The notes below the pieces were generated by a model, which was given only the letters and a program-made list of their open reading frames with translations, was not told where the DNA came from and made no database searches. From Ignavibacteriota bacterium (GTDB lineage: Bacteria; Bacteroidota; Ignavibacteria; UBA10030), in contig OY969585.1 in NCBI GenBank assembly GCA_963701295.1, forward strand, positions 2,432,001 through 2,496,000: DNA of 64,000 nucleotides, read 5' to 3'. The stretch's first letter is position 1; every line of letters starts with the position of its first letter. Below, piece after piece: positions 32,712 through 60,459 of this stretch. The translations under genes and the position numbers were made by a program.

Positions 32712-32827
32712 TTTGGCTGCAGACCTAGCAGTCTCTCAAATAATTTATTCATGTTAGGCTGCAATATGCAGTCTAACACTCAAAAAAGCGTATTAGGCTG
32801 CGGTATGCAGTCTAATCAGAGTTAGGC
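32712..32827 (+). other. Candidate attI site
   Basis: Simple site GTCTAAT-CAGA-GTTAGGC (crossover G|TT at 32821) preceded by palindromic direct repeats at 32712, 32753 and 32792; no attC arm upstream. Confidence 0.7.
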
Positions 32828-32845
32828 CGCAAACGGGAGGAATCA

Positions 32846-33415
32846 ATGAGGTCAACTATAACATTTCTTCTGATTTTCTCACTGCTAGTATTATCGCGAG
32901 CCACTAGCCAAGATTCGCTTGATAATCAATGGAAAGTTGCAGAGCGTCAAATCAAACGTTTGTCTCCATCAGCATTTGAGAAATTGCCCATTACCATAGT
33001 GGAGGAACTAATAAAAGACGATTACACTATTCCACAATGTTCTGAGCATCCTGACCCTCACAATGTAATTTCTGGTGAATTCAAAGTTAGCGGTAAAAAA
33101 GATTGGGCGGTTTTAGCTTCAAAGGATGGTGTGTCATCTATAATCATTTTTTGGGGTGGTGTAGCAAAAGATACCACACACCTACTTGCAGAGAGAGATA
33201 TTGGCTATCTTCAAGGTGGAGAGCATGAAATCGAATACTCTCGTTTGATAGAAGTCGTAGGTAAGGTCGAGATATCTAAAAACAAAAATATTTTGAATGA
33301 CTGCTCGACGATATTAATTGACCATGACGGAATCGAAAATTATTTTTGGAATAAGGCGTCTGCCATTTATTATCTCCATCAATGCAAATGGCTTGAATTC
33401 TTTGGGTCAGACTAA
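32846..33415 (+). CDS. Cassette: secreted hypothetical protein
   Basis: GGAGG RBS, signal peptide, followed by attC. Confidence 0.8.
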   Translation: MRSTITFLLIFSLLVLSRATSQDSLDNQWKVAERQIKRLSPSAFEKLPITIVEELIKDDYTIPQCSEHPDPHNVISGEFKVSGKKDWAVLASKDGVSSIIIFWGGVAKDTTHLLAERDIGYLQGGEHEIEYSRLIEVVGKVEISKNKNILNDCSTILIDHDGIENYFWNKASAIYYLHQCKWLEFFGSD

Positions 33416-33429
33416 ATTATCTGTTTGCG

Positions 33430-33587
33430 CCCTAACCAGCGGCTCAAGCTGACCGGATGAGCGTGGGAGCAATTTACATTGCGTGTAGAGGTTTTGTGCT
33501 TAATAATTTAATTGGTAGTGTGAACCTATTTTCTTGGGTGCATTACGAAACTATTCAACGCGGCAGCTTAGCCGCAGTCCGTTAGCC
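33430..33587 (+). repeat. attC 1
   Basis: CCCTAAC...GTTAGCC with pairing L boxes. Confidence 0.9.
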
Positions 33588-33629
33588 AGCGCAAACTTAT
33601 TACAGACATCAAATTAAATGGAGGTAATT

Positions 33630-34190
33630 ATGAAAACATTTATTATGGCATGTTTTGTATTAGCTTTTTCGGGTTGCAATTTTAAGAGTGATTATAAATT
33701 AATCACTTCACAGAATGGCAGAGTTTATAGAATCGATAAATCTTCTGGAGAAGTCAGCTTAGTCGAAGGATTCACAATTACCAAGCTTCAAGAACCAAAA
33801 ACTGAAGAAGAGTCCAAACAGGAGGAATTAAAACTATTCAAGGCAATTACGTGGCCTACAATCAAATTGCCCGGAACGACTATCACTCTTGTGTTAAGAA
33901 CAATTTGGAGGGAGGGCAATATTTATTATCAATTGAATGCCTCTCCCTATGAGGGAGATTTACAGCGTTCTGCAGAATCTTATCTATCAAGCAGTAGCTA
34001 CTTTTCAATAGAAATGCGTGATAAAGACGGTTTTATTCTTCTCAGAGTCCCAATATCAATTTCACGAATGAGTGGAATTGTTGATAATAATGGGAAGCGT
34101 GAGAGTATGGAAGCAAATGATAAAATTGAATGTACATCAGGAAAATATCTATCTTTTGTAGGTTGGAATTCGGGTTACTTCCTTAAATAA
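33630..34190 (+). CDS. Cassette: hypothetical lipoprotein
   Basis: GGAGG RBS; lipobox FSGC. Confidence 0.8.
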   Translation: MKTFIMACFVLAFSGCNFKSDYKLITSQNGRVYRIDKSSGEVSLVEGFTITKLQEPKTEEESKQEELKLFKAITWPTIKLPGTTITLVLRTIWREGNIYYQLNASPYEGDLQRSAESYLSSSSYFSIEMRDKDGFILLRVPISISRMSGIVDNNGKRESMEANDKIECTSGKYLSFVGWNSGYFLK

Positions 34191-34204
34191 ATTTTTTTTG
34201 CGCT

Positions 34205-34362
34205 GGCTAACCAGCAACTCAAGTTAACGAAATAAGTGTGGGTACATTAAGCATGGCTCGAAACGGTTTAGTATATTTTGAAGACTTTCAACTTGAAACT
34301 CGTTTCTTTTTCGACAAACTTGAAAGTTATCAGTGCGGCAGCTTAGTTGTCATCCGTTAGCC
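34205..34362 (+). repeat. attC 2
   Basis: GGCTAAC...GTTAGCC. Confidence 0.9.
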
Positions 34363-34390
34363 ATTGCGTTAGAATTCGACGAGATAAACA

Positions 34391-35041
34391 ATGATTAAAC
34401 AAAACACCTTTAAAAGAGCGGTGAGTCAGTTCAGCAAACTCGAAAAGCGATCAAATTTTTTCGCGCTAGCAAGCAATCTAATCCATAATAGCTTCGATGT
34501 GGAGGGTTACATCTTACTCTTAGCGACTTGGAATTTTGCTCTCTTTCGATACGCAGTGAAACAATTTGATATTGAGAAGTTCAAAAACTCACTCATTTCA
34601 TTAAAAGTCCCGTTTAGTAGACTTGAAAGCCTCAAAATCGAATCAGCCGATTTGGATAAATACGCGGCAGATATTAAAATAATCTTTACATCCCTTTCCA
34701 AAATCGAAGGCGTAAAGTTTACTGGTGCACCGAAATTGATGCATCTAAAAAATCCAGATTTATTCGTTATGTGGGACGAGTACATCAGAGGTGGAAAACC
34801 TAAAAAATATTATGACAATCTTGATATCGTAAAAACTGGTCAATGTGTTATTGAGAAATATGAAAAGGATGCAAACGGTTATTTTCATTTTCTTAAAGAC
34901 ATGCAATGCCGTTTTTCTCATCTTAGTTCACCATCGAAAATGAAGACAATGGCTAAAGCGATTGATGAGTTCAATTATGTAACAATTACTTTGCCAATCC
35001 AAAAAGCAATAAAGACTGTAAAACAATCTGGCGCTGGCTAA
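34391..35041 (+). CDS. Cassette: hypothetical protein, HhH-glycosylase-like motif
   Basis: GVKFTGAPKLMHLKNPDLFVMWD; stop codon lies in R''. Confidence 0.7.
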   Translation: MIKQNTFKRAVSQFSKLEKRSNFFALASNLIHNSFDVEGYILLLATWNFALFRYAVKQFDIEKFKNSLISLKVPFSRLESLKIESADLDKYAADIKIIFTSLSKIEGVKFTGAPKLMHLKNPDLFVMWDEYIRGGKPKKYYDNLDIVKTGQCVIEKYEKDANGYFHFLKDMQCRFSHLSSPSKMKTMAKAIDEFNYVTITLPIQKAIKTVKQSGAG

Positions 35042-35232
35042 CCAGCGGCTCAAGCTGACCGGATGAGCCGAGATACGTTAAGCATGGCGTGCGGTGGGTT
35101 TAAGTTTTTATAATTAACTTTTCAGTACCTCGTTGGTTGAGTATAAATAAATTTAGTTATCAGCATGAACTTGTTTTGTTATAAGCAATTTGAAACTTAT
35201 CAGCGCCGCAGCTTAGCGCCGTTCCGTTAGGG
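35036..35232 (+). repeat. attC 3
   Basis: GGCTAAC...GTTAGGG. Confidence 0.9.
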
Positions 35233-35257
35233 CGCGCAAAACGAAAAAAATAAATAT

Positions 35258-35812
35258 ATGATAAAATATTTAATTGTGTTGCTAGCATTTGTTCCAGCCT
35301 TTTTAATGGGACAGGTGGACAAATCCGATAGTTCAGGATCAAATGTTACAGATCAACAAGCTCAAATTAATATATACAAATTGAATGTTGGTTCAGGGTT
35401 TAGTTCAAAGAATCTTTTAGTATTTTTGTCATCTCTGATGTACAATGATGAGAATAGTTGTTATATACTTCGATATAGTTACTCAACAGAATTCAATTTC
35501 TTTGGTCCCATTCCAGATGAGACAACATGGGATATTGGTCTATTATATGGGTGGAGTTCAAGATATTTTGCGTTTGGAATTGGACTAAGTTATGTCAATT
35601 TGACCCAAAGAGGCGTTTTATTGCATAATTTATTTTTTGGCGGTGAATACCAGAAAATCACATTAGAAAGAGTTGGTGTGCCTATTCAAATTGAATTATC
35701 TGGTCCATTGTTTCCATTCCTTGGTGGTGCAATAATAGCATTCGCAAATTTAAATACGGTGAATAGTTACGTAGGATTAGTTGCTGCGATAGAAATTGGA
35801 AAATTAAAGTAG
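35258..35812 (+). CDS. Cassette: probable small outer-membrane beta-barrel protein
   Basis: Signal peptide, alternating beta-strand pattern. Confidence 0.65.
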   Translation: MIKYLIVLLAFVPAFLMGQVDKSDSSGSNVTDQQAQINIYKLNVGSGFSSKNLLVFLSSLMYNDENSCYILRYSYSTEFNFFGPIPDETTWDIGLLYGWSSRYFAFGIGLSYVNLTQRGVLLHNLFFGGEYQKITLERVGVPIQIELSGPLFPFLGGAIIAFANLNTVNSYVGLVAAIEIGKLK

Positions 35813-35828
35813 CATTCTTTTTTGTGCG

Positions 35829-36025
35829 CCCTAACCAGGCGCTCAAGCTGACGGAATAAGCGTGGGTGCGTTACGCATGGCTGGTGGTGGTTTTAGGTTT
35901 TTATAATTTACTTTTCAGTACTTCGTTGGTTGATTGCAGATTAATTTGGTTATCAGCATGAACTCATTTCGTTGGGTGCAAATTGAAAGTTGGTCATGCC
36001 GCAGCTTAGCGCCCATCCGTTAGCT
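35829..36025 (+). repeat. attC 4
   Basis: CCCTAAC...GTTAGCT. Confidence 0.9.
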
Positions 36026-36047
36026 GGCGCGCTCAGGAGTTAGTTTT

Positions 36048-36665
36048 ATGATTACCAAACATAACAACAAAATTACTCTACTTTTTGCTGCTATATTGCT
36101 TACTATTGTTGCAGTGAATTGTGACCATTCGACTCAACCTAAAGACGAAGTGGGCGATATCCTTCCTTTGAAAGTTGGTAATTCCTGGAATTACACAAGA
36201 ACATGGACAAGATTAGATAGTGTTGTAGTAGATTCTGTTACCATGGTAGTCCGTTCACGCGATACTGTATTAGGTGTCTCTGGTTATAATGTCGATAATT
36301 TGATTATAGGCCCAATTATCTTTTTAGAAATGTACATGCTTGACAATAGATCTGATGGACTTTACTATGTTTTATGGGCGCTTACCGAACCTCCCTCTAT
36401 ACCAAGTTTATCAAAAGCGTTACCTTTTCCAACCCATCTTGGCGAGGTGATCTCTTTTCACGGATATACTATTACAACAGAATCCATTAGTGACCAAATT
36501 ATGGTACCGGCAGGGACTTATAATTGTGTCAAGTATGTAGCAAGGACTGACTCAATTGTTATTGGAACAATATGGAGCAAGCCTAATCTCGGACTTGTTC
36601 GAACTTGGGCGAAATACGGATTAATTGAATACACGCATCAGCTCAATTCATACTCATTAAAATAG
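36048..36665 (+). CDS. Cassette: hypothetical lipoprotein
   Basis: Lipobox AVNC; PLKVGNSWNY and VPAGTY.C motifs. Confidence 0.8.
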   Translation: MITKHNNKITLLFAAILLTIVAVNCDHSTQPKDEVGDILPLKVGNSWNYTRTWTRLDSVVVDSVTMVVRSRDTVLGVSGYNVDNLIIGPIIFLEMYMLDNRSDGLYYVLWALTEPPSIPSLSKALPFPTHLGEVISFHGYTITTESISDQIMVPAGTYNCVKYVARTDSIVIGTIWSKPNLGLVRTWAKYGLIEYTHQLNSYSLK

Positions 36666-36672
36666 GCGCGCC

Positions 36673-36869
36673 AGCTAACCAGGCGCTCAAGCTGACGGAA
36701 TGAGCGTATGGACGTTAAGCATGGCGTGTGGTGGGTTTAAGTTTTTATTATTAACTTTTCAGTACCTCTTTGGTTGGGAGTAAATTAATTTGGTTATCAG
36801 CATAAACTTGTTTCGTTATCAGTATGTTGAAAATATTCAGCGCCGCAGCTTAGCGCCGGTCCGTTAGGC
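36673..36869 (+). repeat. attC 5
   Basis: AGCTAAC...GTTAGGC. Confidence 0.9.
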
Positions 36870-36881
36870 AGCCAAAATAAA

Positions 36882-37391
36882 ATGACTCCTGCACAAAAAA
36901 CGCCTTTTCTCATTCTTTTTAATGCATCTATGATATTGAGATCGGTCAGCAAAAGTAAATCGTTGGGTAAAAAGTTATCTGAAAACTATAAGAATAGAAA
37001 AATTAGAATATTTAGAAAAGAGACTTTCAGTGAATTTAAGAAACTTATTAAGAAAATCGATAAGAACAATTTAGAGCAAAAACACATACACGATTCTATT
37101 AAATGCATAAGTAAGAACAGTCATACTTCTTTTGGCCAAGCTCAAAAAGGGTTAAATGTACTTTTAAAGTATTACTGTCATTTGATTTACCATAACAAAA
37201 GAAAAAGAATTGTGAAAGAATTGGATTGCCCTCTTGATAGTTTTATCTTGAAAGAGTTGCATCAATCGATATTCTTAAATCATATGAACGAAGAAATGTA
37301 TATGGCGATCCAAAAAAGCATTCCCACAGCCTCTCGAATAGTATTTGACTATAGATGGGATAAGAAGAAAATCATAGAAGCTAAAATATAA
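36882..37391 (+). CDS. Cassette gene 1 of 2: basic hypothetical protein
   Basis: SFGQAQKGLNVLLKYY...CPLDS motif. Confidence 0.7.
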   Translation: MTPAQKTPFLILFNASMILRSVSKSKSLGKKLSENYKNRKIRIFRKETFSEFKKLIKKIDKNNLEQKHIHDSIKCISKNSHTSFGQAQKGLNVLLKYYCHLIYHNKRKRIVKELDCPLDSFILKELHQSIFLNHMNEEMYMAIQKSIPTASRIVFDYRWDKKKIIEAKI

Positions 37392-37411
37392 TTTCTATAA
37401 GGAAGGAAACT

Positions 37412-37921
37412 ATGAAAAACAAATATGGTTGTCGCCTATTTTCACTTTTTATCCTATTTATCCTTTTTTCTTTCCAGTCTAGATCCCAGCTTATTGATTC
37501 TCATTATTTAGGAAAATTGAAATATGGCATGAGTTTAATTGATGTCTCCAATCTTGATATTCAATTTTCTAATATTACTGGCGAGGGGCAAGAGAATGGA
37601 ACTGCAAAGATTCAGATCGTAACTGTGGATGTATATGACGGAGCAACCCTTTATCTAAAACATGAAAAGATTGACCATGTCGGTATAACATTCAGCTGGT
37701 GTAACTGCAGACCATATTTACCTGATGCTGTATCACCTCTTCTTTCTGAAGATTGCAAGAGAACTTTATCCAAAGTTGAAAATTATCTTACTTCTATATA
37801 TGGTAAACCTAAGATTAATAGTAATTTTGGTGTTAATAAAACATGGCTATCGTCAACTTCGAAAATTGAACTTGTCGTTAATGATGCAATGATAAATTTA
37901 TTTTTCAGCAAGCGAAAATGA
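37412..37921 (+). CDS. Cassette gene 2 of 2: secreted hypothetical protein
   Basis: RBS and signal peptide. Confidence 0.7.
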   Translation: MKNKYGCRLFSLFILFILFSFQSRSQLIDSHYLGKLKYGMSLIDVSNLDIQFSNITGEGQENGTAKIQIVTVDVYDGATLYLKHEKIDHVGITFSWCNCRPYLPDAVSPLLSEDCKRTLSKVENYLTSIYGKPKINSNFGVNKTWLSSTSKIELVVNDAMINLFFSKRK

Positions 37922-37955
37922 TGTATATAAAAATATTTATAATAAGATTTTGGCT

Positions 37956-38112
37956 GCCTAACCAGGCGCTCAAGCTGACGGAATGAGCTGGGAGCAATCA
38001 ACATGGCTAACAGAGGTTTTGTGTTTAATAATTCATTTGGTAGCGTGAACCTGTTTCGTTTAGTGCATATTGAAAATTATCAGCGCCGCAGCTTAGCGCC
38101 GGTCCGTTAGGT
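37956..38112 (+). repeat. attC 6
   Basis: GCCTAAC...GTTAGGT. Confidence 0.9.
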
Positions 38113-38161
38113 GGCGCATTTCCATTCAACCATTTTCTTTAAAATTAATTTAGAGAATACG

Positions 38162-38962
38162 ATGCTTTCTCAGGAAGATATCAGACAACAGTATCATAAA
38201 GGTGACCCTTATCTTAAATTTGATGGGGTAGCCAACGACAAAACTCCTAGAGAGCTACTTCCTTTAATTGATCTTATTCGCAAGGAAAGTGAATGGCGAA
38301 AAACACCATTAAGGATACGAAAAGATAATAATGGTCGTTATAAACCAATATTCATAAACGGTCTTTGCTTCGGTTTCGATGTTTTGGTAAGAGCAGATGA
38401 TGCCCAAATTAGAGCAATTGAGACTGGAAAAAAATGTACACATTATCCTTCAGGCGTTTACCCTTTAATAGTTCAAGGTTGTAACTATAACGATTTCGCA
38501 TTTCTGTCGACTGATGTGATTTCATACTGTGAAGCTAAAAAAGAATTAAATAATAACAACTATAATGAAGCTCTTTCTCAAATAAGAAATGCGTTTGAAT
38601 TAAAACCTCAAGAATCTCTTTATGCAACTCTCTTCTTTGAGATTCGACTCGAGATGAAAGATGAATTGTCAATTGATGAAGAATTAAAATATTTTGAAAA
38701 TGATATTGATTCAACTATTCATTCTGGCAGGGTATACAAATGGATACGATTTTTGGTTCAACAAAAGAAAGATGATAAGGCGTTACAACTGATTCAATTG
38801 ATCAATCGACTCCTTGATGAACAAATATTAGGTAAAAGAAAAAGCAAAATTTATGGTAGCCAAAAATCTAGTTGGTACAGTTACAAGAAAGAACAATTCA
38901 ACAAGAAAATAGAAAAAACAAAATTAAAACTCGAAACAAATTTGGTTTCAACAAAGAAATAA
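38162..38962 (+). CDS. Cassette gene 1 of 2: hypothetical protein with TPR-like C-terminal half
   Basis: YNEALSQIRNAFELKP helical repeat. Confidence 0.65.
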   Translation: MLSQEDIRQQYHKGDPYLKFDGVANDKTPRELLPLIDLIRKESEWRKTPLRIRKDNNGRYKPIFINGLCFGFDVLVRADDAQIRAIETGKKCTHYPSGVYPLIVQGCNYNDFAFLSTDVISYCEAKKELNNNNYNEALSQIRNAFELKPQESLYATLFFEIRLEMKDELSIDEELKYFENDIDSTIHSGRVYKWIRFLVQQKKDDKALQLIQLINRLLDEQILGKRKSKIYGSQKSSWYSYKKEQFNKKIEKTKLKLETNLVSTKK

Positions 38963-38969
38963 TCACAAA

Positions 38970-39473
38970 ATGGAACAACTAGAACGTACACGCAGATATC
39001 TGAAGCGATTGAGGGAGATTTATAACCAAGTTCCTTATATAACAGATACCCGTGAATATTATATTGATGATGTTTATTCCTTCTTCATACATTGTTATCA
39101 TATTAGAGATTGGATTATTCACCTAAATCTTCTTGGTTTAGGCGAGAAAGATGTAGATGCATTTATTAATGAACACAATGAATTACGAATATGTGCGGAT
39201 CTATGTAATGGAACAAAACATTGTGAGTTGAAACGTAAATTAAGAACTAGTCGGCAACCGCATTTAGCCAGTTGGACATTTTCTTCTGACGGCATGAACG
39301 ATAAAATGGAAACCACGAAAGGAAAGTTTTGTATTCTTTCAGGAGATAAATTTTATGATGCGTTAGAACTTGCAGAGAGTTGCATGAAACTTTGGGACGA
39401 ATATATCAGCGAGCTTTACAAAAGTGCTGAAAAAAATGCGCCACCTAACCAAGCGCTCAAGCTGACGGAATGA
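38970..39473 (+). CDS. Cassette gene 2 of 2: HEPN-like protein
   Basis: FFIHCYHIRDW and RICADLCNGTKH motifs; reads into the attC. Confidence 0.6.
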   Translation: MEQLERTRRYLKRLREIYNQVPYITDTREYYIDDVYSFFIHCYHIRDWIIHLNLLGLGEKDVDAFINEHNELRICADLCNGTKHCELKRKLRTSRQPHLASWTFSSDGMNDKMETTKGKFCILSGDKFYDALELAESCMKLWDEYISELYKSAEKNAPPNQALKLTE

Positions 39474-39637
39474 GCTGAGTGCGAAATTCATGGCTAATGG
39501 TGGGTTGACGTTTTTATTATTCAGTTTTTAGTACCTATAACTTTGATACTTATCAATTTGGTTATCAGCATGAACTTGTTTCGTTTTGTATATATTGAAA
39601 CTTATCAGCGCCGCAGCTTAGCGCCAGTCCGTTAGGC
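39443..39637 (+). repeat. attC 7
   Basis: ACCTAAC...GTTAGGC. Confidence 0.9.
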
Positions 39638-39660
39638 AGTGCACAGAAGGGATTCCTTTT

Positions 39661-40224
39661 ATGGAAGTTAATAAAGAACAAAATATTCCGAGAAGCTTTA
39701 AAAGCTTTCTCATAAAAAATCTCGACCGTGCTACAAATGCTGTCGGAATACTTACAATTCTTTCAACCATTGCTATCTTTGGATTATCGATGCTCGTTTT
39801 TGGATTGAACTATTCTACATGGATCACCGTTTTATATTTTGGCATATCGGGGACATGTGAGGTATTTCATATTCAAAAAAAGTCCGATCTTTACAAGAGA
39901 ATGCAAACAATCTCTGACAGTGACGATCTCATTCACAATATAGCTTCTGCAAAAAGAGTTGGCGATCCCAAAATAATTGAACAGATCAAATACGCCGGAT
40001 TTTTGTTTAATGCAATCGGTTTCGAGAAATTGCCAATTTCTGTTGGAATATCTCGCCCATTGTGTCCCAAGTGTAATCGCCCTGTTGTTATGGATGCGAA
40101 GGTAAAGTTTCCTGGACGCATTAAAATTAAATATTTCTGCATTTGCGGCTATGAAAAGTTTAGCGACAAAACTGAAAACGAATTGCGTGATCAGGTAGCA
40201 AGAGGATTGAATGCGCCTTCTTAG
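39661..40224 (+). CDS. Cassette gene 1 of 2: 2-TM protein with C-terminal Zn ribbon
   Basis: Two TM segments; CPKC...CICG. Confidence 0.7.
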   Translation: MEVNKEQNIPRSFKSFLIKNLDRATNAVGILTILSTIAIFGLSMLVFGLNYSTWITVLYFGISGTCEVFHIQKKSDLYKRMQTISDSDDLIHNIASAKRVGDPKIIEQIKYAGFLFNAIGFEKLPISVGISRPLCPKCNRPVVMDAKVKFPGRIKIKYFCICGYEKFSDKTENELRDQVARGLNAPS

Positions 40225-40245
40225 CACAACGCTTAACCAGAAAAA

Positions 40246-40935: not shown

Positions 40936-40956
40936 AAATAATACCTGTTGTGCACT

Positions 40957-41692: not shown

Positions 41693-41701
41693 AAGTTTGC
41701 G

Positions 41702-50266: not shown

Positions 50267-53251
50267 ATGAGGCATTTATTAATATTATTAGTATTGCTAT
50301 CTATTTATATAGCCAGATCACAAACTCTGTCACTTCAAAAAGCATACCTATCATTTCCGGCTACGGGACAGCCGTATTGTATTACACATACGGATCTTAA
50401 TCACGATGGAATCGAAGATATTATTTCTGGTAATGCAGGTGGTATAAATGTGTCCGTTTTCTATGGGAGCAGAACAGCTCCCTATTATCAATCTGCTCGA
50501 CCTTTTGGAGATTCGATAAATACCGTTAGTTGTATAACAACAGGGGATATTAATCAAGATGGTTGGCCGGATATTGTGTATGGAACATACAATCTTATTC
50601 AAGATACAGTAAGCAATAAAGTGATAATATTGCAATCGTCATCCGGTGGATTAAATTTTAATCAAACTCTAGAATTCTCGTTTACCGAAAAACCAAATGC
50701 AATTTCTATCTTTGATGTTAATGAAGATTCACTTAACGATATTGTTGTTGCTCATGGTCATACGATTTCAATCTATACAGCTTCAACTACTGCAGGGCAA
50801 TTTAATTCACCTATAAATATCATTTTAACATTATCTGATTCAGCTTCTTCAATCAAATATGCCGCTATACAACAAATGCGTGCTATTGACATGAATGGAG
50901 ATGGATACAAAGACTTAGTAGTTACCGATGGGTCTAGTTTGTATGTACTTACATTAATAAAAAGTTTCCCATATTTATCTTTGCATGCACAATTTAGTAT
51001 TCCCCTTCATCAGAATGAGACCGGTCAAGATTTTGCAGTAGGGGACATTAACAATGATGGAACTAATGATGTTGTTGTCCTTTGCCGGCAAATGTATGCC
51101 GATAGTGTAGCAGTGTTCTTTAATGATGGCAAGGGAATTCTTTCTTTCAATAAAAAATATGTCTTGGGTCCACCAAATACTGATCTCGGTGAAAATCATA
51201 TTGTTCTAGCGGATCTGAATAATGACAATCGCCTTGATATTGCAACATCTAATATGTTATACACAGGGCAAAAACCAATGATAAGTGTTATGTTACAAGA
51301 TCCCAATTCGTTTGGATTTCTGCCTAGCACTCAATATGTATTGGATGCAACAAGCATAGATTTAATCATAGTTGATGCAAATAACGACGGCAATAAAGAT
51401 ATTGTTACTGTAGATCCAGATAACGCAGATATAGCACTTGTGCTTGCCAATAAAACACCGGGTGACTATTCTTCCATTGAATATTTCAATGTCCCTTTTG
51501 TACCATTTGCCATTACTTCTGGAGACATAAATTGCGATGGATATCCAGATATTATTACAACTGGTTGGGGTGATACAACTGGTGATAACTATCTCTCTCT
51601 TATACTCTCAGCAAATCAATCCGATAAATTTGATTCACCAAAGAATTTGCTCCTATCGCATACTATGTATGATCCATCAGCACGAAAGATAGAAACTGCT
51701 GATATTAATAATGATAGTTTACTTGACGTTGTTATAAGCTACCTTCTTATTCCTGGAATTCTCACTCTTCCAGGATCTGGCACAGCTGATCTATTTAATT
51801 TAGGTAGTTACTGGCCAACATCAGGCCAAGCAAATGATGATTTTGGAATTTTCGATATCGATCAGAATGATACTACAGACATTATTGTGAATAATTCAAG
51901 AAACTTCGACATAGAATACTTAAAAGGAGAGGGTAGCGGTATTTTTGATTTACCCAAAACATTATTTAGTGATACTCTAAAATCTAAATTTACCATCTGT
52001 GATGTAAATCGAGATGGTAGATTGGATATAGTTGCCCTAGAAGGAGATAATCTCGTAAGTTATGTCAATAAAGGGAACGACATATTTGATAAAGTAATAA
52101 GTAAAAGCATAAACAAGACTGTTGTAGATATGATTGCGATTGATCTCAATGGAGACGGCAATCCAGATATTGTTATTGCATTTGGCGACAACTCACAGAC
52201 ACTCGTTGTCCAGTTAGCAAGTGATTCTCTGGGTCATTTTAGTCCTCCAATTTCATTAACGGTTCCAGGACACCAAGGGACCCATAATGTGGGAATTGCG
52301 GATATGAATGGAGATGGTCTTCTAGATATCGTTACTGAGACCTTTTCAGATATTTGTGTTTTCACTGCTCTTCCTGGAGGTGGATTTTCAAGTCCATTAT
52401 TATTTCCAACTGGTACAGGAGAATGGAAATTATGTATAGACGATTTTAATGGTGATCTAAAACCCGATGTTTGCATTTGTAATGGATTCTTGGTTAAATA
52501 TGTTAAGAACTTGACTCCTGGTACTCCATCTGGGGTGATAACAAAAGCTTATATTAATTCCCCGTCAATACAGACCCCTTTCTACTTTTCAACAGGCAAC
52601 ATAAATCGATTCGGTAAGGTTATATTAGACAATTATGATGGATCGACCATCGCTATCCGAACTCACTCGGCTGCACAACCGCCAAATGTTTCGACACAAA
52701 GTAAAGTAGTTAAACGTTATTATGAAATATCGACTAATGGAAAGATTTCATCCGGTCAAATCACATTACCGTATGAATTGAGTGAAGTATCCATCGTAGG
52801 GCTAAAACCTAAGGGATTGCATTTATTTCATTATATGAACGGCGTATGGCAACTTGAACAAAGCAAAGTCAACATTGCAAATCAAACTCTTACGGCATTA
52901 ACAATTAAACTAGATGGAATCTGGGTTATGTGTGATCCAAACGATCATCCAATAACAGAGGTATTTAATGGCAATACAAACCTACCATATAAATGTTCAC
53001 TGTTACAAAACTATCCTAACCCTTTTAATCCATCCACAACTTTTTCTTTTAGTCTTGCATCAAAATCTTTTGTGTCGCTGAAAGTATTTGATATGTTAGG
53101 AAGGGAAGTTGCAATCATTATCTCAGAAGATATGTCAGCAGGAAGTTACACGCGTGAATGGAACGCAACAAATATTTCAAGTGGTGTCTACTTTTATCGT
53201 TTGCAGGCAGGTCTATTCACAGAAACCAAGAAATTGATTTTATTACGTTAA
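50267..53251 (+). CDS. Cassette: FG-GAP/VCBS repeat protein with T9SS C-terminal domain
   Basis: Many D.N.DG..D repeats; QNYPNPFNP tail. Confidence 0.9.
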   Translation: MRHLLILLVLLSIYIARSQTLSLQKAYLSFPATGQPYCITHTDLNHDGIEDIISGNAGGINVSVFYGSRTAPYYQSARPFGDSINTVSCITTGDINQDGWPDIVYGTYNLIQDTVSNKVIILQSSSGGLNFNQTLEFSFTEKPNAISIFDVNEDSLNDIVVAHGHTISIYTASTTAGQFNSPINIILTLSDSASSIKYAAIQQMRAIDMNGDGYKDLVVTDGSSLYVLTLIKSFPYLSLHAQFSIPLHQNETGQDFAVGDINNDGTNDVVVLCRQMYADSVAVFFNDGKGILSFNKKYVLGPPNTDLGENHIVLADLNNDNRLDIATSNMLYTGQKPMISVMLQDPNSFGFLPSTQYVLDATSIDLIIVDANNDGNKDIVTVDPDNADIALVLANKTPGDYSSIEYFNVPFVPFAITSGDINCDGYPDIITTGWGDTTGDNYLSLILSANQSDKFDSPKNLLLSHTMYDPSARKIETADINNDSLLDVVISYLLIPGILTLPGSGTADLFNLGSYWPTSGQANDDFGIFDIDQNDTTDIIVNNSRNFDIEYLKGEGSGIFDLPKTLFSDTLKSKFTICDVNRDGRLDIVALEGDNLVSYVNKGNDIFDKVISKSINKTVVDMIAIDLNGDGNPDIVIAFGDNSQTLVVQLASDSLGHFSPPISLTVPGHQGTHNVGIADMNGDGLLDIVTETFSDICVFTALPGGGFSSPLLFPTGTGEWKLCIDDFNGDLKPDVCICNGFLVKYVKNLTPGTPSGVITKAYINSPSIQTPFYFSTGNINRFGKVILDNYDGSTIAIRTHSAAQPPNVSTQSKVVKRYYEISTNGKISSGQITLPYELSEVSIVGLKPKGLHLFHYMNGVWQLEQSKVNIANQTLTALTIKLDGIWVMCDPNDHPITEVFNGNTNLPYKCSLLQNYPNPFNPSTTFSFSLASKSFVSLKVFDMLGREVAIIISEDMSAGSYTREWNATNISSGVYFYRLQAGLFTETKKLILLR

Positions 53252-53261
53252 GGTAATTGCG

Positions 53262-53420
53262 CCCTAACCAGGCGCTCAAGCTGACGGAATAAGCGTGGTA
53301 CTATTTAACATTGCGTGCAAAGTTTTTGATGTTTAATAATTCATTTATCAGCGTGAACTCAGTTCGTTGGTCGCAATACGAAACTTATCAGCGCCGCAGC
53401 TTAGCGCCGGTCCGTTAGGC
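53262..53420 (+). repeat. attC 19
   Basis: CCCTAAC...GTTAGGC. Confidence 0.9.
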
Positions 53421-53432
53421 AGCGGGTAAAAG

Positions 53433-53801
53433 ATGAAACTCAACATCACAAATAGCACAGAAAGATTTGATAATACAAAATTCTCCAACGAGATAGTCGA
53501 TGGACAGAGTCTTCCGCTGTTCAGTACGTACACATGTCCGCGTTGTCATGAAAAGATTGGGTTCACGAAAGAAGATTTTGAAAAGAGGTCGATGCTAAAC
53601 TTCTCTAACCTTTCGTTGGATATTCAATCACAGTTCGGGAATTGGGCTGAGAAAAACGACATGAAACATCATCATTTTCTCGATTGGAGTTGTCCAAAGT
53701 GCTATCTCCCAGCGCGCGTGTACATACAACATTAGGCTGGGGGGAGACATGGTGATGCGGGAGTTAATTTGTTAAGTGTTCTAGAAATCACAGAGAAATA
53801 A
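53433..53801 (+). pseudogene. Cassette: Zn-binding hypothetical with in-frame TAG at 53733
   Basis: CPRC/CPKC; frame continues AGGRHGDAGVNLLSVLEITEK to a TAA abutting the attC. Confidence 0.6.
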
Positions 53802-53807
53802 CCCGCT

Positions 53808-53965
53808 GCCTAACCCGCGGCTCAAGCTGACCGGATGAGCGCACTGCAAAATTCATGGCGTGCAACGGTCTGGATGTAATTTGAAAGCAATCTACTTGGA
53901 ACTCGGTTCGTTTAGTACTATTTTGAAAATTATCAGTGCGGCAGCTTAGCCGCCATCCGTTATGT
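53808..53965 (+). repeat. attC 20
   Basis: GCCTAAC...GTTATGT. Confidence 0.9.
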
Positions 53966-54248
53966 TGCACAGGCAGCGCACACAGTATGTGTTACTTGCG
54001 GGGTTGGGTAATCGCGTTCTAACGGCTTTAAGTTTTAGTTACATTGTACAGATTTAGATTTTGGTTGCTTTCTATAAGTTACGTTGTCAACAAGTTTTGT
54101 TTTGTACGAGAATAAAAGCAGTGCAAGTTAAGTTCCTCAAAAGAATCTCGGCGATGCGCTGCCTGTGCTCAGAATAATTAAAGTTTTTTTGGTGTTAGCA
54201 AGTATTGTTTTGTTGAAAGTTTGTACAACAAAGAAACTATAACATAAC
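53959..54248. other. Gene-less cassette B' (duplicate of 46694-46983)
   Basis: Appears identical to B, including most of its attC. Confidence 0.8.
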
Positions 54249-54401
54249 CAGCAACTCAAGCTGACGGTTGGAACGTGGGATTTAAATTCATGGCGCTAAA
54301 CACACGTTATTATTATGGCGCGAATATAGACGTGTGGCTTGGTTCGTTGATTGCATGACTCGTAATTATCAACGCCGCAGCTTAGTTGCCATCCGTTAGG
54401 G
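54242..54401 (+). repeat. attC 21
   Basis: ACATAAC...GTTAGGG. Confidence 0.9.
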
Positions 54402-54477
54402 CGCACAAATTACGAGTGGCATAATTATACAAGTTGTGTTTTGTACATCTGCAAATAATTGATTTAATGGAGTCGAC

Positions 54478-55155
54478 GTGAAAATCAGTTCTGTCCGAAT
54501 TCTTGGTTCGTTAGGGATTGGAGGAGCATTGCTCATGTTCATTGGTGATATGTGTTTGTATGGACATCTCGGTAGCGGTGGTGATTTTTGGACGAATCTT
54601 CCTCTTGTTATTTCAAATGAATCCGATATTCAAATCATTGCCGGTGGATTTATTGGTCCGATTGCCGCCCTTCTGTACTGTCTTGGCTTCTTTTCTATAT
54701 ATAAAATGATTTCCCCGAAAAGCCCAATATTGGCCATCATCGTGGCGGGAGGTGCCGTTGCATCGATTGTCATCATGGGCGCATATCATGCCATGTGGGG
54801 CATTCGGGCCTTATTGATAAAAGTTGGCTTGCCTTCGGGCGATTTTCATGAATTGTATAACCAGATCAAGCAATATACGCTCCTTTTCTACGACGCTGCG
54901 GGTGTTGTTGGAGGAATAACTTCTCTGCTTTTGTTTTTTGCTGTCTTATCCAGAAAATCGCTCTACCCCAGATGGACAGCTGTTGTGAATCCTGGATTTC
55001 TTTTCCTTTTTAGCCCATTAGCGGGTCTCATTCCCGCTCCTCTCGGAGCAATTGTTTATGGTGGGTGTTTGAACCTTGTGTTTGTAGTCTTCTTTTCAGT
55101 AACGGTCTTTTCAACTCGATCAATTATCTATGCAGACCAGATGCACAGTGCATAA
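54478..55155 (+). CDS. Cassette: multi-pass membrane protein (DUF6796-like)
   Basis: About 6 TM; GD near N-terminus, YPRW...NP motif. Confidence 0.75.
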   Translation: MKISSVRILGSLGIGGALLMFIGDMCLYGHLGSGGDFWTNLPLVISNESDIQIIAGGFIGPIAALLYCLGFFSIYKMISPKSPILAIIVAGGAVASIVIMGAYHAMWGIRALLIKVGLPSGDFHELYNQIKQYTLLFYDAAGVVGGITSLLLFFAVLSRKSLYPRWTAVVNPGFLFLFSPLAGLIPAPLGAIVYGGCLNLVFVVFFSVTVFSTRSIIYADQMHSA

Positions 55156-55176
55156 CATACAAAACAACCATGTGCG

Positions 55177-55371
55177 CCCTAACCAGGCGCTCAAGCTGAC
55201 GGAATGAGCGTTGGTGCAAAATTCATGGCTAATGGTGGGTTTAAGCTTTTATTATTCAGTTTTTAGTGCCTATAACTTTGATACTTATTAATTTGGTTAT
55301 CAGCATGAACTTGTTTCGTTGGTTGCAATATGAAATTATCAGCGCCGCAGCTTAGCGCCGGTCCGTTAGGG
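55177..55371 (+). repeat. attC 22
   Basis: CCCTAAC...GTTAGG. Confidence 0.9.
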
Positions 55372-55457
55372 CGCAACAATATTTTATTATCAGTGCATTT
55401 GTAAACGATTAATATATTAATATAAATGAAGCAATCTAAATTTCTAAAGGAGTTGGT

Positions 55458-56117
55458 ATGCACATTCATCTTCCTAAGGGAAACCTTGGATCTCTCCGAG
55501 GCTTTCTACTGGAATTGTTCACGATAACCTGCGGCATCTTGATCGCTATTTCGCTCGAAAGTGCGGTGGAGTCGATTCACCATCACCACCTGCTGCGCGA
55601 GGCGCGTGACAACATCCGCTCTGAACTGCGAGACAACCTCCGGTCAATAGATAGTGCGACAAAAGAAATTCCTGGCGAACTTGAAATGCTACAGAAGGTG
55701 GTTGCTCTTTGCATGCAAGAACGATCCCATCGCGGATCGGTTGACCTTCGCAAAGTAAAAAACATCAATCTCGGTTTCACTAGTTTCACAATAAGCTCGA
55801 ATAGTTGGAGCACAGCGCAATCTATTGGAGCAGTCAGCCTTATGGACTATGAAGAGATCAAAAAATACACATCGGCCTATGAGACGCAAACTATGACTAC
55901 CTCCCTTGAGCAACAGACGCTGGAAAAGTGGCTACAGTTGCAGCGCATTGGGATCATCTTGGGCGATAAAACGAATCTAAAGGACTTCTCGAATGATGAT
56001 CTTGCCGATATCGAACGCACTGCCAGCGAAGCTTTCTCTTTTACGTCTACTTTGCAGCAATTCGGTCAATCGCTGACAAAGAAGTATAACCAAATTCTAA
56101 ATTCGTCACAGGAGTAA
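55458..56117 (+). CDS. Cassette: single-TM helical protein, paralog 1
   Basis: ELFTITCGILIAISLE membrane anchor; AAGGAG RBS. Confidence 0.8.
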   Translation: MHIHLPKGNLGSLRGFLLELFTITCGILIAISLESAVESIHHHHLLREARDNIRSELRDNLRSIDSATKEIPGELEMLQKVVALCMQERSHRGSVDLRKVKNINLGFTSFTISSNSWSTAQSIGAVSLMDYEEIKKYTSAYETQTMTTSLEQQTLEKWLQLQRIGIILGDKTNLKDFSNDDLADIERTASEAFSFTSTLQQFGQSLTKKYNQILNSSQE

Positions 56118-56154
56118 TATATTTTCCTGTTATGATAAAATTATCATTGTTGCG

Positions 56155-56309
56155 CCCTAACCAGGCACTCAAGCTGACGAAATGGGCGTGGGAGCAAATT
56201 ACATGGCGAATAAAGTTCTGGTGGAATAAGAAAGATCCTGCGTGAACTCAGTTCGTTGGGTGCATGTTGAAAGTTTTCGTTGTCGCAGCTTAGCGCCAGT
56301 CCGTTAGGC
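56155..56309 (+). repeat. attC 23
   Basis: CCCTAAC...GTTAGGC. Confidence 0.9.
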
Positions 56310-56338
56310 CGCAACATCACTAATCTAGAACATATAAT

Positions 56339-58459
56339 ATGAAAAAAACATCCCTTTTTCTTTTGTTGTTATTTAATATTTCTTTTCTGAATTCTAAAAA
56401 TTTTATGTGGAAGCAAACAAACGGGCCACAAGGTGGATCCATTGCAACAATTTGTTTTGTTGATAGCATTGTTTTTGTCGGAGGAGTAGGTGGTGTATTT
56501 AAAAGTACTATCGATGGGGATTATTGGAAATTTATGGGACTTCCTAATGTTGAAGTTAAAAAAATTGTTGTCAGTGGAAATATATTGTTTGCCGGAACAG
56601 CACGTAATGGAGTTTATTTTAGTAAAGATTATGGAACGAGTTGGGAAGAAAACAAAAATAGTTCTTCAGATTTTGGTAATATTGTTGATATGGCAGTAAA
56701 GGATACCTTTATTTTTGTTGCCACTAATGGATATGGAATATTCAGAAGGTCATTGTCTGATTCAAATTGGTCGGCTGTAAATACCGGCATTGATAACTTA
56801 AATTTCAAGACAATCATTGTAAGTAACGATGTTATTATCGCTTCTGCAGCAGGTGCGTCTGGTTCGGGTATGTTTCGAAGCACCAATAACGGTGAACAAT
56901 GGAAAAGAGTCGATCCTAATCCATATGCATGGATGGCGGACGCAATCTGTAAATACAATGATACGCTCTATGCTGCGAGGTTTTCAAACCAGGCGAAAGT
57001 TTACATCAGCATTGACGATGGTCTAACCTGGTTACTTCCTTCGGCAGCGTCTCCACCCAATGACATTATTACAAATTTATATGCGGATAAATCTGGACTT
57101 TACGCAGGTATATACAACAACGGGGTCTATCGCTCTACAAACGGAGGAATAAGTTGGGCAAATTTAAATACTGGTCTCTATAATTTATCACCGACTCAAT
57201 TAAATGGTAAGGACGGACTCATTTATTATGGATCTTATGATGGTATCAAAATCTCATCAGACTATGGTACAACATGGCAAACCAAAAATTTTGAACTAAA
57301 CAATAGTTCAGTATCGTGTATTAATTCGATTGGGCAATACACGTTTGCTGGTACTAATGGTGCTGGATTGTTTTATACTTCTGATCTTGGCGCGTCCTGG
57401 AAACAAACAATTAATTCCAATGTTTTTCCATTTGTAAAGAATATTATAAATGTCAATGATACGATCTTTTTAGTCTCAAGCGATTGGACATATGATTGCA
57501 AAGTCATCATGAGTAGTGATAGTGGGTCTTCATGGGTTCAACGTAATAACGGTATTGACGGAGGTGAAATTACTTCTATTGCTTGGTCTAAAGGGTTTTT
57601 ATACGCAAGCACATCATATGGACTTTTTAAGAGTAGCAATAGAGGATTACAATGGACGTTATTGACAAATGGATTGCCAAATAATGGACGGCCAAACGTA
57701 TCAAGTGTTGCTGCGATGGACTCTTTTGTAGTAGCAGCAAATGGAGAAAATCAAATTTATCGAAGCATTGATGCAGGAGAGCACTGGACTGCGGTTTCTG
57801 TACCAGATCAGCTTACTCCTCCGATCATAAAGGTTTCTGTAGTGGATACAGTTATCTATGCTGGTTGTTCAGAAGTGAATGTGGTATTTAATAGTTATGA
57901 TAAAGGCGCAACATGGAGGCCATTTAATATTCCATACTTCAACGGAAATGTTGAAGATATTACTGGAAATAAGGATTCTTTATTTATTGCAGTAACTTAT
58001 TCTGGAATCATAGCACAGTGTGGCAATGTTGGTGCAAAATTAATTAGTTCAGATATCATGAATCCTGATATCAGAAGTGTTTACTACTCAAATGGAAGAC
58101 TTTGGGTAGGTACCTGGGGATCTGGAATTTTTAGAAATATCGATTCCTCTGAAGTCACGTATAGTCCTTCAACAAGCGATCCAACAAATTTTCCTAAATC
58201 GATTGTACTCAAACAAAATTATCCCAACCCTTTTAATCCATCAACAACGATATCATTTTCATTACCTGCGAAAGCAGTTGTATCGTTGAAAATATATGAC
58301 ATAATAGGAAGAGATATAGAAACACTTGTTTTCAAAGAATTGTCTGCTGGGATTCATTCAGTACAATGGAACGCCAAGAGATTGACAAGTGGAATTTACT
58401 TCTATCGCTTACAAACTGCTTCATTTGTTCAGACAAAGAAGTTGTTATTATTAAAATAA
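56339..58459 (+). CDS. Cassette: BNR/Asp-box beta-propeller protein with T9SS C-terminal domain
   Basis: Repeated S.D.G.(T/S)W motifs; QNYPNPFNP tail. Confidence 0.9.
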   Translation: MKKTSLFLLLLFNISFLNSKNFMWKQTNGPQGGSIATICFVDSIVFVGGVGGVFKSTIDGDYWKFMGLPNVEVKKIVVSGNILFAGTARNGVYFSKDYGTSWEENKNSSSDFGNIVDMAVKDTFIFVATNGYGIFRRSLSDSNWSAVNTGIDNLNFKTIIVSNDVIIASAAGASGSGMFRSTNNGEQWKRVDPNPYAWMADAICKYNDTLYAARFSNQAKVYISIDDGLTWLLPSAASPPNDIITNLYADKSGLYAGIYNNGVYRSTNGGISWANLNTGLYNLSPTQLNGKDGLIYYGSYDGIKISSDYGTTWQTKNFELNNSSVSCINSIGQYTFAGTNGAGLFYTSDLGASWKQTINSNVFPFVKNIINVNDTIFLVSSDWTYDCKVIMSSDSGSSWVQRNNGIDGGEITSIAWSKGFLYASTSYGLFKSSNRGLQWTLLTNGLPNNGRPNVSSVAAMDSFVVAANGENQIYRSIDAGEHWTAVSVPDQLTPPIIKVSVVDTVIYAGCSEVNVVFNSYDKGATWRPFNIPYFNGNVEDITGNKDSLFIAVTYSGIIAQCGNVGAKLISSDIMNPDIRSVYYSNGRLWVGTWGSGIFRNIDSSEVTYSPSTSDPTNFPKSIVLKQNYPNPFNPSTTISFSLPAKAVVSLKIYDIIGRDIETLVFKELSAGIHSVQWNAKRLTSGIYFYRLQTASFVQTKKLLLLK

Positions 58460-58466
58460 AGTTGCG

Positions 58467-58624
58467 CCCTAACAAGGCGCTCAAGCTGACGGTTGCCAGC
58501 TGGGTGCAATTTACATGGCGAGCATAGGTTTAGTTCTTAATAATTTAATTATCAGCGTGAACTCAATTCGTTGGGTGCAGGTTGAAAGTTGGTCACGCCG
58601 CAGCTTAGCGCCATACCGTTAGGG
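58467..58624 (+). repeat. attC 24
   Basis: CCCTAAC...GTTAGGG. Confidence 0.9.
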
Positions 58625-58703
58625 CGCAACAAAAATTTCTTTTTCGGTGCATTTTTACACCATTTATGTAAATGAAGTAATCTAGATTTCAAAAGGAGTC
58701 GAC

Positions 58704-59363
58704 ATGCACATTCATCTTCCTAAGGGAAACCTTGAATCTATCCGAGGTTTTCTTCTTGAATTGTTCACGATAACCTGTGGTATCTTGATCGCTATTTCGC
58801 TCGAAAGTGCGGTGGAGTCGATTCACCATCACCACCTGTTGCGCGAGGCACGTAGCAACATACTATCTGAAATGCGAGACAACCACCGGATAATAGATAG
58901 TACAACAAAGAAAATTCCTGATGAACTTGAAATGTTGCAGAAGGTGGTTTCTCTTTGTATGCAGGAAAGAGCCCATCGCGGTTCGGTTGACCTTCGCAAA
59001 GTAAAAAACCTCAATCTCGGTTTCACTGGTTTCTCAATAAGTTCCAATAATTGGAGCACTGCACAATCGATTGGAGCGGTCAATCTCATGAACTATGAAG
59101 AGATCAAGAAATATACATCAGTCTATGAAATCCAAACTTTGGCTACCTCCCTTCATCAACAGACACTGGATAAGTGGCTACAGTTGCAACGCATTCTGAT
59201 TCTCTTGGCCGGAAAAACAAATCTAAAGGATTTCTCGGATAATGATCTGGCTGAGGTTGAACGCACTGCCAGCGAGGCTTACTCTTTTACGTCTACTTTG
59301 CAGCAAGCCGGTCAATCGCTTACAAAGAAGTATGGCCAAATTCTAATTTCGTTACAGGAGTAA
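58704..59363 (+). CDS. Cassette: single-TM helical protein, paralog 2
   Basis: Same length as, and highly similar to, 55458-56117. Confidence 0.8.
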   Translation: MHIHLPKGNLESIRGFLLELFTITCGILIAISLESAVESIHHHHLLREARSNILSEMRDNHRIIDSTTKKIPDELEMLQKVVSLCMQERAHRGSVDLRKVKNLNLGFTGFSISSNNWSTAQSIGAVNLMNYEEIKKYTSVYEIQTLATSLHQQTLDKWLQLQRILILLAGKTNLKDFSDNDLAEVERTASEAYSFTSTLQQAGQSLTKKYGQILISLQE

Positions 59364-59401
59364 TTCATTCTCTTATTAAAGTAAAATTATCATTTGTTGC
59401 G

Positions 59402-59560
59402 CCCTAACCAACGCATCAAGCTGACGGCTAAAGCGTAGGTGCAATTTACATTGCGCATAAAGTATTTGTGTTTAATAATTCGGTTGGTCGCGTGAACCTG
59501 TTTCCTTGGGTGCACAACGAAACTTGGGCACGCCGCAGCTTATGTGCCGATCCGTTAGGC
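59402..59560 (+). repeat. attC 25
   Basis: CCCTAAC...GTTAGGC. Confidence 0.9.
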
Positions 59561-59578
59561 GGCGGAGGGAAAAACAAA

Positions 59579-60427
59579 ATGCGTATAATAACATTTGGTT
59601 CTATTCTTTCTATCTTTATCCTCACGTCCACTCTAGACGCACAAACAAATTTTGTCTTTCCATTTGATACCACTGACAGATGGGAATATGATATAAAATC
59701 TATGTTCGATTCTCCCTATCAAAGTGCTGGTCATACTACAATCCGTTTCCGCAAAGATACCCTCATGCCTAATGGTAAAACATACAGGACTTTTGCAGAT
59801 GATCGGAGTCCTTTTTTCTTTTTACGTAAAGATAGTCTGAAGATTTTCCAATACAGTGGATCGGATTCCAGCGAATTTGTTCGATATGACTTTTCGAAGA
59901 GGGCAGGCGATACCGTTCAGAAGTTGACACAATATTCGTCAATTGTTCTTAGTGCCGATCAACTGATTTCCGTTTTTGGCACTTTGCGAAGGACAATGAG
60001 CTTTCAAGGAAGCTTCGTAGATGATGATGTTGTTGATACCATAGGTATCTTATCTTTTACTCCGCAGGCAACTGATATTTGGTATCAGCTTACAGGTGCT
60101 TATGTAAATGGTCGCACCTTTGGTGTTTTAACTTCTGTTTTAAATAAAACCGATGAGATAACTAAAGCAATGTTCCTTCAACAGAATTATCCTAATCCAT
60201 TTAATCCATCGACTACACTTTCCTTTGAACTTCCTTTTCAAACAAGAGTATCTTTGACAATCTACGATTTGATGGGGAAGACGATTATCGTTTTACTCAA
60301 TAAAGAGTTAAAACCAGGTATTCATTCTGTAGCTTGGAATGCTTCGAGATATAGCAGTGGTGTGTATTTTTATATTCTTCAAGGGAAAGGTTTTCGAATT
60401 ACAAAACAAATGTTATTAATAAAATAG
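59579..60427 (+). CDS. Cassette: secreted protein with T9SS C-terminal domain
   Basis: Likely start MRIITF after GGAGG; QNYPNPFNP tail. Confidence 0.85.
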   Translation: MRIITFGSILSIFILTSTLDAQTNFVFPFDTTDRWEYDIKSMFDSPYQSAGHTTIRFRKDTLMPNGKTYRTFADDRSPFFFLRKDSLKIFQYSGSDSSEFVRYDFSKRAGDTVQKLTQYSSIVLSADQLISVFGTLRRTMSFQGSFVDDDVVDTIGILSFTPQATDIWYQLTGAYVNGRTFGVLTSVLNKTDEITKAMFLQQNYPNPFNPSTTLSFELPFQTRVSLTIYDLMGKTIIVLLNKELKPGIHSVAWNASRYSSGVYFYILQGKGFRITKQMLLIK

Positions 60428-60435
60428 CATCCGCT

Positions 60436-60459
60436 GCCTAACCAGGTGCTCAAGCTGAC
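60436..60459 (+). repeat. attC 26, truncated (left arm only)
   Basis: GCCTAACCAGGTGCTCAAGCTGAC followed by unrelated DNA. Confidence 0.85.

Follow-up and report, generated by a model that had tools for sequence, protein, structure and literature searches.

The stretch of DNA analysed here (the window) comprises 64,000 nucleotides of an Ignavibacteriota bacterium (assembly GCA_963701295.1, contig OY969585.1, positions 2,432,001 to 2,496,000) and contains an integron array in which most gene cassettes begin with a sequence complementary to their own end, over 13-16 bp. This end match is real and cassette-specific, and is a longer form of a published feature that has been in print since at least 2009. 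In studies of attC, the recombination site of integron cassettes, the focus has been the L box, the apical stem and the extrahelical bases. The neglected outer arm of attC provides a measurable handle, and its interest lies in a length that is lineage-specific, a consensus shared with the arms of attI, and apparent signs, or hints, of copying from the gene end. The reading favoured here, with a probability of roughly 0.55, is that the longer R-arm pairing likely forms an integrase-bound duplex arm on the excised circle, the cassette's 5′ end likely being copied from its 3′ end, with selection filtering the products.

Run length was counted from the G of the GTT, and the span 32821-60442 holds 22 gene cassettes and four gene-less ones (Table 1). 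A sequence-only reading of this DNA had proposed that gene-cassette ends are complementary over about 13-16 bp, and the four end pairs that it quoted were all found in place, with perfect runs of 15, 16, 16 and 15 bp. The proposal holds for 15 of the 22 gene cassettes with perfect pairing and for six more once one mismatch is allowed; the cassette at 34356-35042 alone is decayed, at 8 bp. Over all 22, the median run is 14 bp and the mean 12.4 bp. Starts and ends taken from different cassettes of the span pair over a mean of 6.6 bp and reach at least 13 bp in 6 of 462 combinations, which bears out the prediction that own ends pair for longer. None of 100,000 permutations attained the real mean. 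At positions 8-13, own ends agree at 5.7 of six bases, against 3.0 for mismatched pairs. Chance or a shared consensus as the cause of the match is ruled out by the mismatched pairs together with the permutation. The terminal inverted repeats of a transposon or a miniature inverted-repeat transposable element would be one shared sequence; here, 74 distinct sequences occupy positions 5-13 in the 83 cassettes of the genome.

In practice, the end match shows where a cassette truly begins and ends, and which cassettes hold several genes or are decayed. The three two-gene cassettes, with runs of 16, 16 and 15 bp and no hidden attC half, are indeed the single units that had been suggested. The pair 49235/49731 does lie inside coding sequence, as the stop of the open reading frame (ORF) is the TAA of R''.

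Similar pairing is found across the genome and the genus. In the whole-genome set of 83, from which one false start was excluded, 47 cassettes pair over at least 12 bp, compared with 1.2% of mismatched pairs. Dispersed cassettes of the genome, at C1:2.385-2.44 Mb, have decayed to runs of 4-8 bp. The genus set consists of 60 regions from 10 same-genus genomes, picked because their attC sites cluster densely, a choice that is biased towards intact arrays, plus the genome itself. Its 396 cassettes were deduplicated to 392: 305 with a gene, 39 without, and 48 set aside (24 for a hidden attC half). The genus scan misses cassettes whose attC holds an insertion sequence (IS). Related cassettes in the set are not independent, yet only 22 of the 302 sense-strand gene cassettes have a homologue within it. 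Runs of 12-17 bp were found in 233 of the 305 gene cassettes, with a mode of 15 and a maximum of 17, and own ends again pair for longer than mismatched ones. The excess over composition is strong up to position 13, weaker at 14-15 and gone by 16-17; the claim made here is that the pairing signal stops at 15-16. A hard ceiling at 16 bp was considered and rejected, since 0 of 11 pass it in the genome itself but 7 of 41 reach 17 in the genus (depletion p 0.08 and 0.12).

In other lineages, 66 cassettes from 22 of 80 intI loci pair over a mean of 9.1 bp, against 6.0 bp for mismatched ends. The finder used was blind to the outer arm, and four false sites were excluded; the loci L011 and L038 carry the same attC family as the window and are not independent of it. 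In larger sets, runs of 11-12 bp occur in 18 of 37 cassettes of G031, where one more is longer, and runs of 8-11 bp in 25 of 28 cassettes of G032, where no run exceeds this. By the same measure, ten cassettes of class 1 integrons pair over 4-12 bp, and a Kovacikia plasmid gave one doubtful pair. Cassettes of the RDD family pair over 10 bp in three cases with other attC families, versus 15 and 16 bp with the attC family of the window; thus, arm length tracks the attC family and not the gene. The long arm is a lineage-specific variant within the canonical integron.

Pairing past the 7-bp R box had been taken as new, which does not stand. According to the accessible part of Bouvier et al. 2009, most cassettes self-pair past the 7-nt boxes to 9-11 consecutive nucleotides, and extended pairing is credited there to Rowe-Magnus 2003 and Sundstrom 1991 (PMC2727003). 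In that part, the feature takes up one sentence, which gives neither function nor origin. The pairing described there and the pairing in the window are alike in belonging to a cassette's own ends alone, extending past the 7-nt boxes, keeping register with the crossover between G and TT, and accompanying a canonical IntI. They differ in total length, which is 9-11 nt in the published feature and 12-17 nt here, with a mode of 15. A literature search that covered few subscription papers and no supplements returned nothing on arms of 13-16 bp, on what they do or on their copying. Rowe-Magnus 2003 is said to discuss the end match, and longer arms or an argument on genesis may already be there. The outer arm is not mentioned in the available portions of PMC5371416, PMC5027507, PMC7439510, PMC11641012, PMC8352920, PMC8946536, PMC3458562, PMC12614218, PMC4792948 and PMC3053210.

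The arm has the consensus GTTAGGCNGCA at positions 1-11, with an information content that is high through position 10 and about zero from position 12. Its composition is GC-rich and then A/T-rich, as previously described. The genus yielded 13 attI copies, and in each of them the left arm, when inverted, is ATTAGACTGCA and lies 4 nt away from the crossover. These left arms (13 of 13) match the cassette-arm consensus, and at most 0.7% of random genome 16-mers score as high. On the cassette-arm profile (positions 5-11), all four arms of the window attI outscore 99% of random genome 16-mers. Because the consensus of positions 1-11 equals the attI arm, these positions are taken to be where the right-hand IntI monomer would bind. 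As the 5′ arm of a cassette becomes the right arm of attI upon integration, the consensus is best read as an integrase site. The first 11 bp are therefore likely, judging by this consensus, to be a putative integrase-binding arm. The arm length of Xer recombinases is also 11 bp. The XerCD/dif system is similar in that such an arm adjoins a short spacer; it differs in that the arm here is built by folding one strand and carries 1-5 private bp in addition. IntI is described as kin to XerCD in the accessible text of PMC4792948.

Folding of the bottom strand with DNA parameters gave the circle form an advantage over the hybrid present in the array at 18 of the 19 intact attC sites, by a mean of -6.6 kcal/mol. 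The pairing of positions 8-11 was 0.94 in the circle and 0.32 in the array. The circle joins the cassette's own arms and the array joins those of neighbours, so that the circle site folds better. The earlier suggestion that the circle form is favoured thus holds in computed, thermodynamic terms only. The accompanying suggestion that the extra stem forms only in the circle fails, as the array hybrid also pairs in 4 of the 19, at a probability of at least 0.9, because neighbouring cassettes there have arms of one type. Runs are longer where the inner stem is weaker, with rho -0.27 between run length and inner GC, and -0.40 over 70 arm types. The standard deviation of stem energy is 1.78, against 2.21 on shuffling, and 0 of 5000 shuffles were as low.

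The gene-less cassettes had been described as having 8 bp only. This 8-bp stop is found in 4 of 4 gene-less cassettes in the span and in all 11 of the genome's short cassettes, but it belongs to one family; other gene-less cassettes have ordinary arms, of 10-17 bp in 14 of the 39 in the genus set. In the 8-bp family (end pair 8-9 bp; also at L118:12987), the 5′ arm runs gaplessly into an internal stem of 13-15 bp that continues it. The partner of this stem lies 80-87 nt from the cassette end, with about 72 nt looped out. On folding, three of the four gene-less cassettes in the window form the internal stem with a fully paired attC, and the fourth forms that outer junction too, its L stem being misfolded. 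A screen for the internal stem returned 25 of 87 cassettes with runs of at most 9 bp (one probably by chance), against 0 of 305 with longer runs. One 125-bp gene-less relative lacks exactly the loop-out, a single case that is possibly an assembly artefact. A promoter scan of two gene-less cassettes gave 2 matches versus 1.3 expected, and the RNA fold of one gave a z of -1.56. The first cassette (860 bp) after the attI at G000:C1:224172, as well as L090, has a start like that of the gene-less family and 8-bp pairing. The 860-bp cassette may be a gene-carrying member of the 8-bp family.

[quoted passage not shown] Positions 12-16, which lack a consensus, would clamp this arm against fraying. The better folding of the circle would favour integration over excision. 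As for origin, the single bottom strand has its 3′ end at the start of the cassette; this end would fold back onto the R'' arm, and a polymerase would fill it in, either when the cassette arises or later, during a circle stage. The copied products would then be filtered by selection acting on the stability of the stem. In a stricter version, which is put forward tentatively and is rather doubtful, the gene's own 3′ end would be copied by fold-back to write the 5′ end of an integron cassette, and the match would be a scar of cassette creation. The bottom strand would self-prime 12-16 nt from the crossover, fill to AAC and close into a circle. If true, match length would be a lineage-specific ruler, and the match would show which end is the template.

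Selection on the bottom-strand hairpin leaves G:T pairs on the bottom strand, according to the accessible text of PMC5027507. The L stem has this bias, its 52 single mismatches comprising 32 bottom-strand G:T, 6 top-strand G:T and 14 others. The 30 single mismatches of the outer arm comprise 8, 6 and 16, respectively, with no bottom-strand excess (outer arm versus L stem, Fisher test, bottom versus rest, p 0.003). In L137, two adjacent cassettes that are 76% identical differ from each other, at both ends alike, by one and the same substitution and 1-nt indel. The 3′ outer arm of the RDD cassette at 49235 encodes the Val-Ile of a motif, with Val in 117 of the 117 homologues having the motif (120 examined). 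Its non-coding 5′ arm mirrors these conserved codons, and a 79%-identical cassette mirrors 16 bp. In 40 cassettes with a wholly coding 3′ arm, pairing is as long as elsewhere. The missing G:T excess, the mirrored indel and the RDD codon mirroring suggest that the 5′ arm follows the 3′ arm, which would be achieved most simply by fold-back fill-in. The idea of the sequence-only reading that the extension records how cassettes are made fits some of these signs, which selection alone may also account for.

Several points weigh against copying as a part of the favoured reading, or against its generality. Around a quarter of the genus gene cassettes (72 of 305) have runs shorter than 12 bp. The comparison of bottom with top G:T alone gives p 0.06, and the L stem is an imperfect control, being selected in the array as well. 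The RDD case tells which arm can adapt freely, not the mechanism. Single mismatches are even between the arms, with 16 on the 3′ arm and 14 on the 5′ arm, so that decay gives no direction. Mirrored changes are few, since so few cassettes have a homologue in the set, and amount to a single clear family plus a terminal base that is possibly due to chance. No more than 12 of 38 cases have the stop codon fully mirrored. Selection predicts the dependence on inner GC better than copying does.

Selection without any copying is a possible, if on balance unlikely, account of the match. Every cassette has to go through a circle, circles with longer R arms would integrate better, and point mutations would build and maintain the match stepwise. 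This agrees with the stability compensation (shorter runs with higher inner GC, and uniform stem energy), with the sharp, footprint-like lineage limits of 11-12 bp in G031 and 8-11 bp in G032, with the decay of dispersed cassettes to 4-8 bp, and with arm decay that has no direction. However, stepwise compensation should enrich bottom-strand G:T in the outer arm as in the L stem, which is not observed. Each of the 74 different sequences at positions 5-13 would also need several separate mutations, and the mirrored indel and substitution would require four matched events.

It has also been considered that, as the 3′ arm, attC and 5′ arm form a contiguous unit of about 190 bp on the circle, recombination between circles exchanges both inner arms together, so that new cassettes inherit a matched inner arm. 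The inner positions do fall into recurring types, and a 2.1-kb cassette family has several inner types around a common outer part; however, such transfer leaves the gene-specific match at positions 12-16, for example at the RDD codons, unexplained, and is improbable. More improbable still is an RNA stem that would close each cassette transcript for processing or protection, the DNA reaction being incidental. Both arms do lie on a single top-strand transcript, either side of the ORF, but top-strand G:U is not in excess (6 of 30), the arms are up to 3 kb apart, and neither the exact register with the crossover nor the consensus shared with attI would be expected.

The cassettes of the array are co-oriented from 32821 to beyond 63570 in the window. 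The genome has a single integron integrase above the family cut-off (453 bits to TIGR02249; cut-off 265). As its gene lies about 1.07 Mb from the window, the integrase would serve the window array in trans. It aligns to Vibrio IntI4 (2A3V) over residues 7-318, almost end to end, with one 1-residue gap. It carries the I2 region, an IntI-specific insertion, which sets it apart from I2-less systems with arms of at least 17 bp. The attI at the head of the array has the same sequence as the site divergent from the only intI of the genome. Seven attI copies are present in the genome, each at the head of a separate array, with one intI; together they may make up an integron of several loci whose integrase acts in trans. 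A literature search by title found no paper on a multi-locus integron with one integrase. The attI crossovers on G000:C1 are at 224172, 1796973, 2464821, 2834104, 3172046, 3446565 and 3566442. Around 270 bp upstream of two satellite attI copies resembles the intI-linked copy (83-86%); in the window, this is the region 32560-32830.

The system has the hallmarks of a canonical integron, namely an IntI with its specific insertion, an attI at the array head, and an attC architecture of R''-L'' and L'-R' halves that has extrahelical bases and is biased to the bottom strand. It resembles sedentary chromosomal integrons and clusters of attC sites lacking integrases (CALINs) in its homogeneous attC family, co-oriented cassettes, gene-less cassettes and attC-targeting IS. 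It differs from them in its attC of 150-200 nt, the 5/8-nt spacer, and an array attI copy without intI. The same attC family is present in records titled Bacteroidota.

One attC is laid out in Table 1, and the remaining sites are 154-197 nt long. Most attC sites measure 150-159 or 190-199 nt, forming two size classes (about 155 and 195 nt), with a central spacer of 5/8 nt. In the accessible text of PMC5027507, a typical attC has 57-141 nt and a central spacer of 5-6 nt. The greater length and spacer are a size variant, not a failure of the integron definition. Once two extra bases are removed, a perfect 15-bp L stem is found in 269 of 387 attC sites. The attC at 62527-62707 (about 181 nt) has extra sequence and a small GC hairpin inside its L' half (62660-62700), and its 90%-identical twin at 63420 has 157 nt. 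The attC after 60442 ends after L''. The next 2 kb or so hold two ORFs and, as far as the end at 62533, nothing recognisable as the start of a cassette. A separate small cluster of decayed attC lies at 7970-8800, in which the cassette 8094-8756 pairs over 4 bp and the upstream attC half lacks R''. No Rfam family was found in the window.

Two attC sites of the array are interrupted by identical IS copies. The transposase has PF01548 and PF02371, and short inverted repeats lie near both ends of the element. The genome holds nine identical and two diverged copies, and 10 of the 10 examined are inserted directly after R''. A DEDD transposase, subterminal inverted repeats and a fixed attC site place the element, by these features, in the described IS1111-attC group (PMC11187229). 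Around 290 nt downstream of the transposase gene are non-coding, where a guide RNA is expected.

Table 1. Coordinates of cassettes and associated sites in the window, with the length of own-end pairing (T9SS, type IX secretion system)
Feature	Position	Strand	Remarks
attI copy at array head	32753..32827	+	four 11-bp arms, type RTTAGRCTGCN; crossover between G and TT at 32821/32822
Gene cassette	32821..33436	+	14 bp, one mismatch at position 7
Example attC, 158 nt	33430..33587	+	R'', 5-nt spacer, L'' with extra base, long terminal region, L', 8-nt spacer, R'
Gene cassette	33581..34211	+	15 bp perfect
Gene cassette	34356..35042	+	decayed, 8 bp
Gene cassette	35226..35835	+	10 bp perfect; 16 bp with one mismatch
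Gene cassette	36019..36679	+	14 bp
Two-gene cassette	36863..37962	+	16 bp
Two-gene cassette	38106..39449	+	16 bp
Two-gene cassette	39631..40963	+	15 bp
Gene cassette	41145..41708	+	14 bp
HNH nuclease cassette	41891..42332	+	14 bp; IS interrupts its attC
IS110/IS1111-type element	42333..43712	-	directly after R''; ends approximate
TonB_C cassette	43859..44335	+	13 bp
Hemerythrin cassette	44476..44934	+	13 bp; three homologues with same arm
Gene cassette	45076..46089	+	15 bp
Gene-less cassette	46234..46547	+	8 bp; 46242-46254 pairs with 46454-46466 (73-nt loop-out)
Gene-less cassette	46694..46983	+	8 bp; 46702-46714 pairs with 46891-46903
Zinc-ribbon cassette	47130..47709	+	13 bp, one mismatch; IS interrupts attC
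Second identical IS copy	47710..49089	-	same attC position
RDD cassette	49235..49745	+	15 bp; coding 3′ arm spans conserved Val-Ile codons
Gene-less cassette	49890..50088	+	8 bp; 49898-49910 pairs with 49996-50008, one mismatch
FG-GAP/T9SS cassette (3 kb)	50233..53268	+	11 bp; 15 bp with one mismatch
Gene cassette	53414..53814	+	14 bp
Gene-less cassette	53959..54248	+	8 bp; 53967-53979 pairs with 54156-54168
DUF6796 cassette	54395..55183	+	13 bp
Gene cassette	55365..56161	+	16 bp; homologous to 58618, from which both ends differ in the base at position 16
BNR/T9SS cassette	56303..58473	+	13 bp, one mismatch
Gene cassette	58618..59408	+	16 bp
T9SS cassette	59554..60442	+	13 bp, one mismatch; attC truncated after L''

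Several proteins of the window carry a type IX secretion tail. The large cassettes, of up to 3 kb (50267-53251, 56339-58459 and 59468-60427), encode proteins with FG-GAP or BNR repeats that are cargo of type IX secretion. Across the genus, the cassette family of about 2.1 kb has 11 members. Duplicated cassettes are also present in the array, at 46660-46983 and 53925-54248 (97% identical) and at 55365-56161 and 58618-59408 (86-88%).

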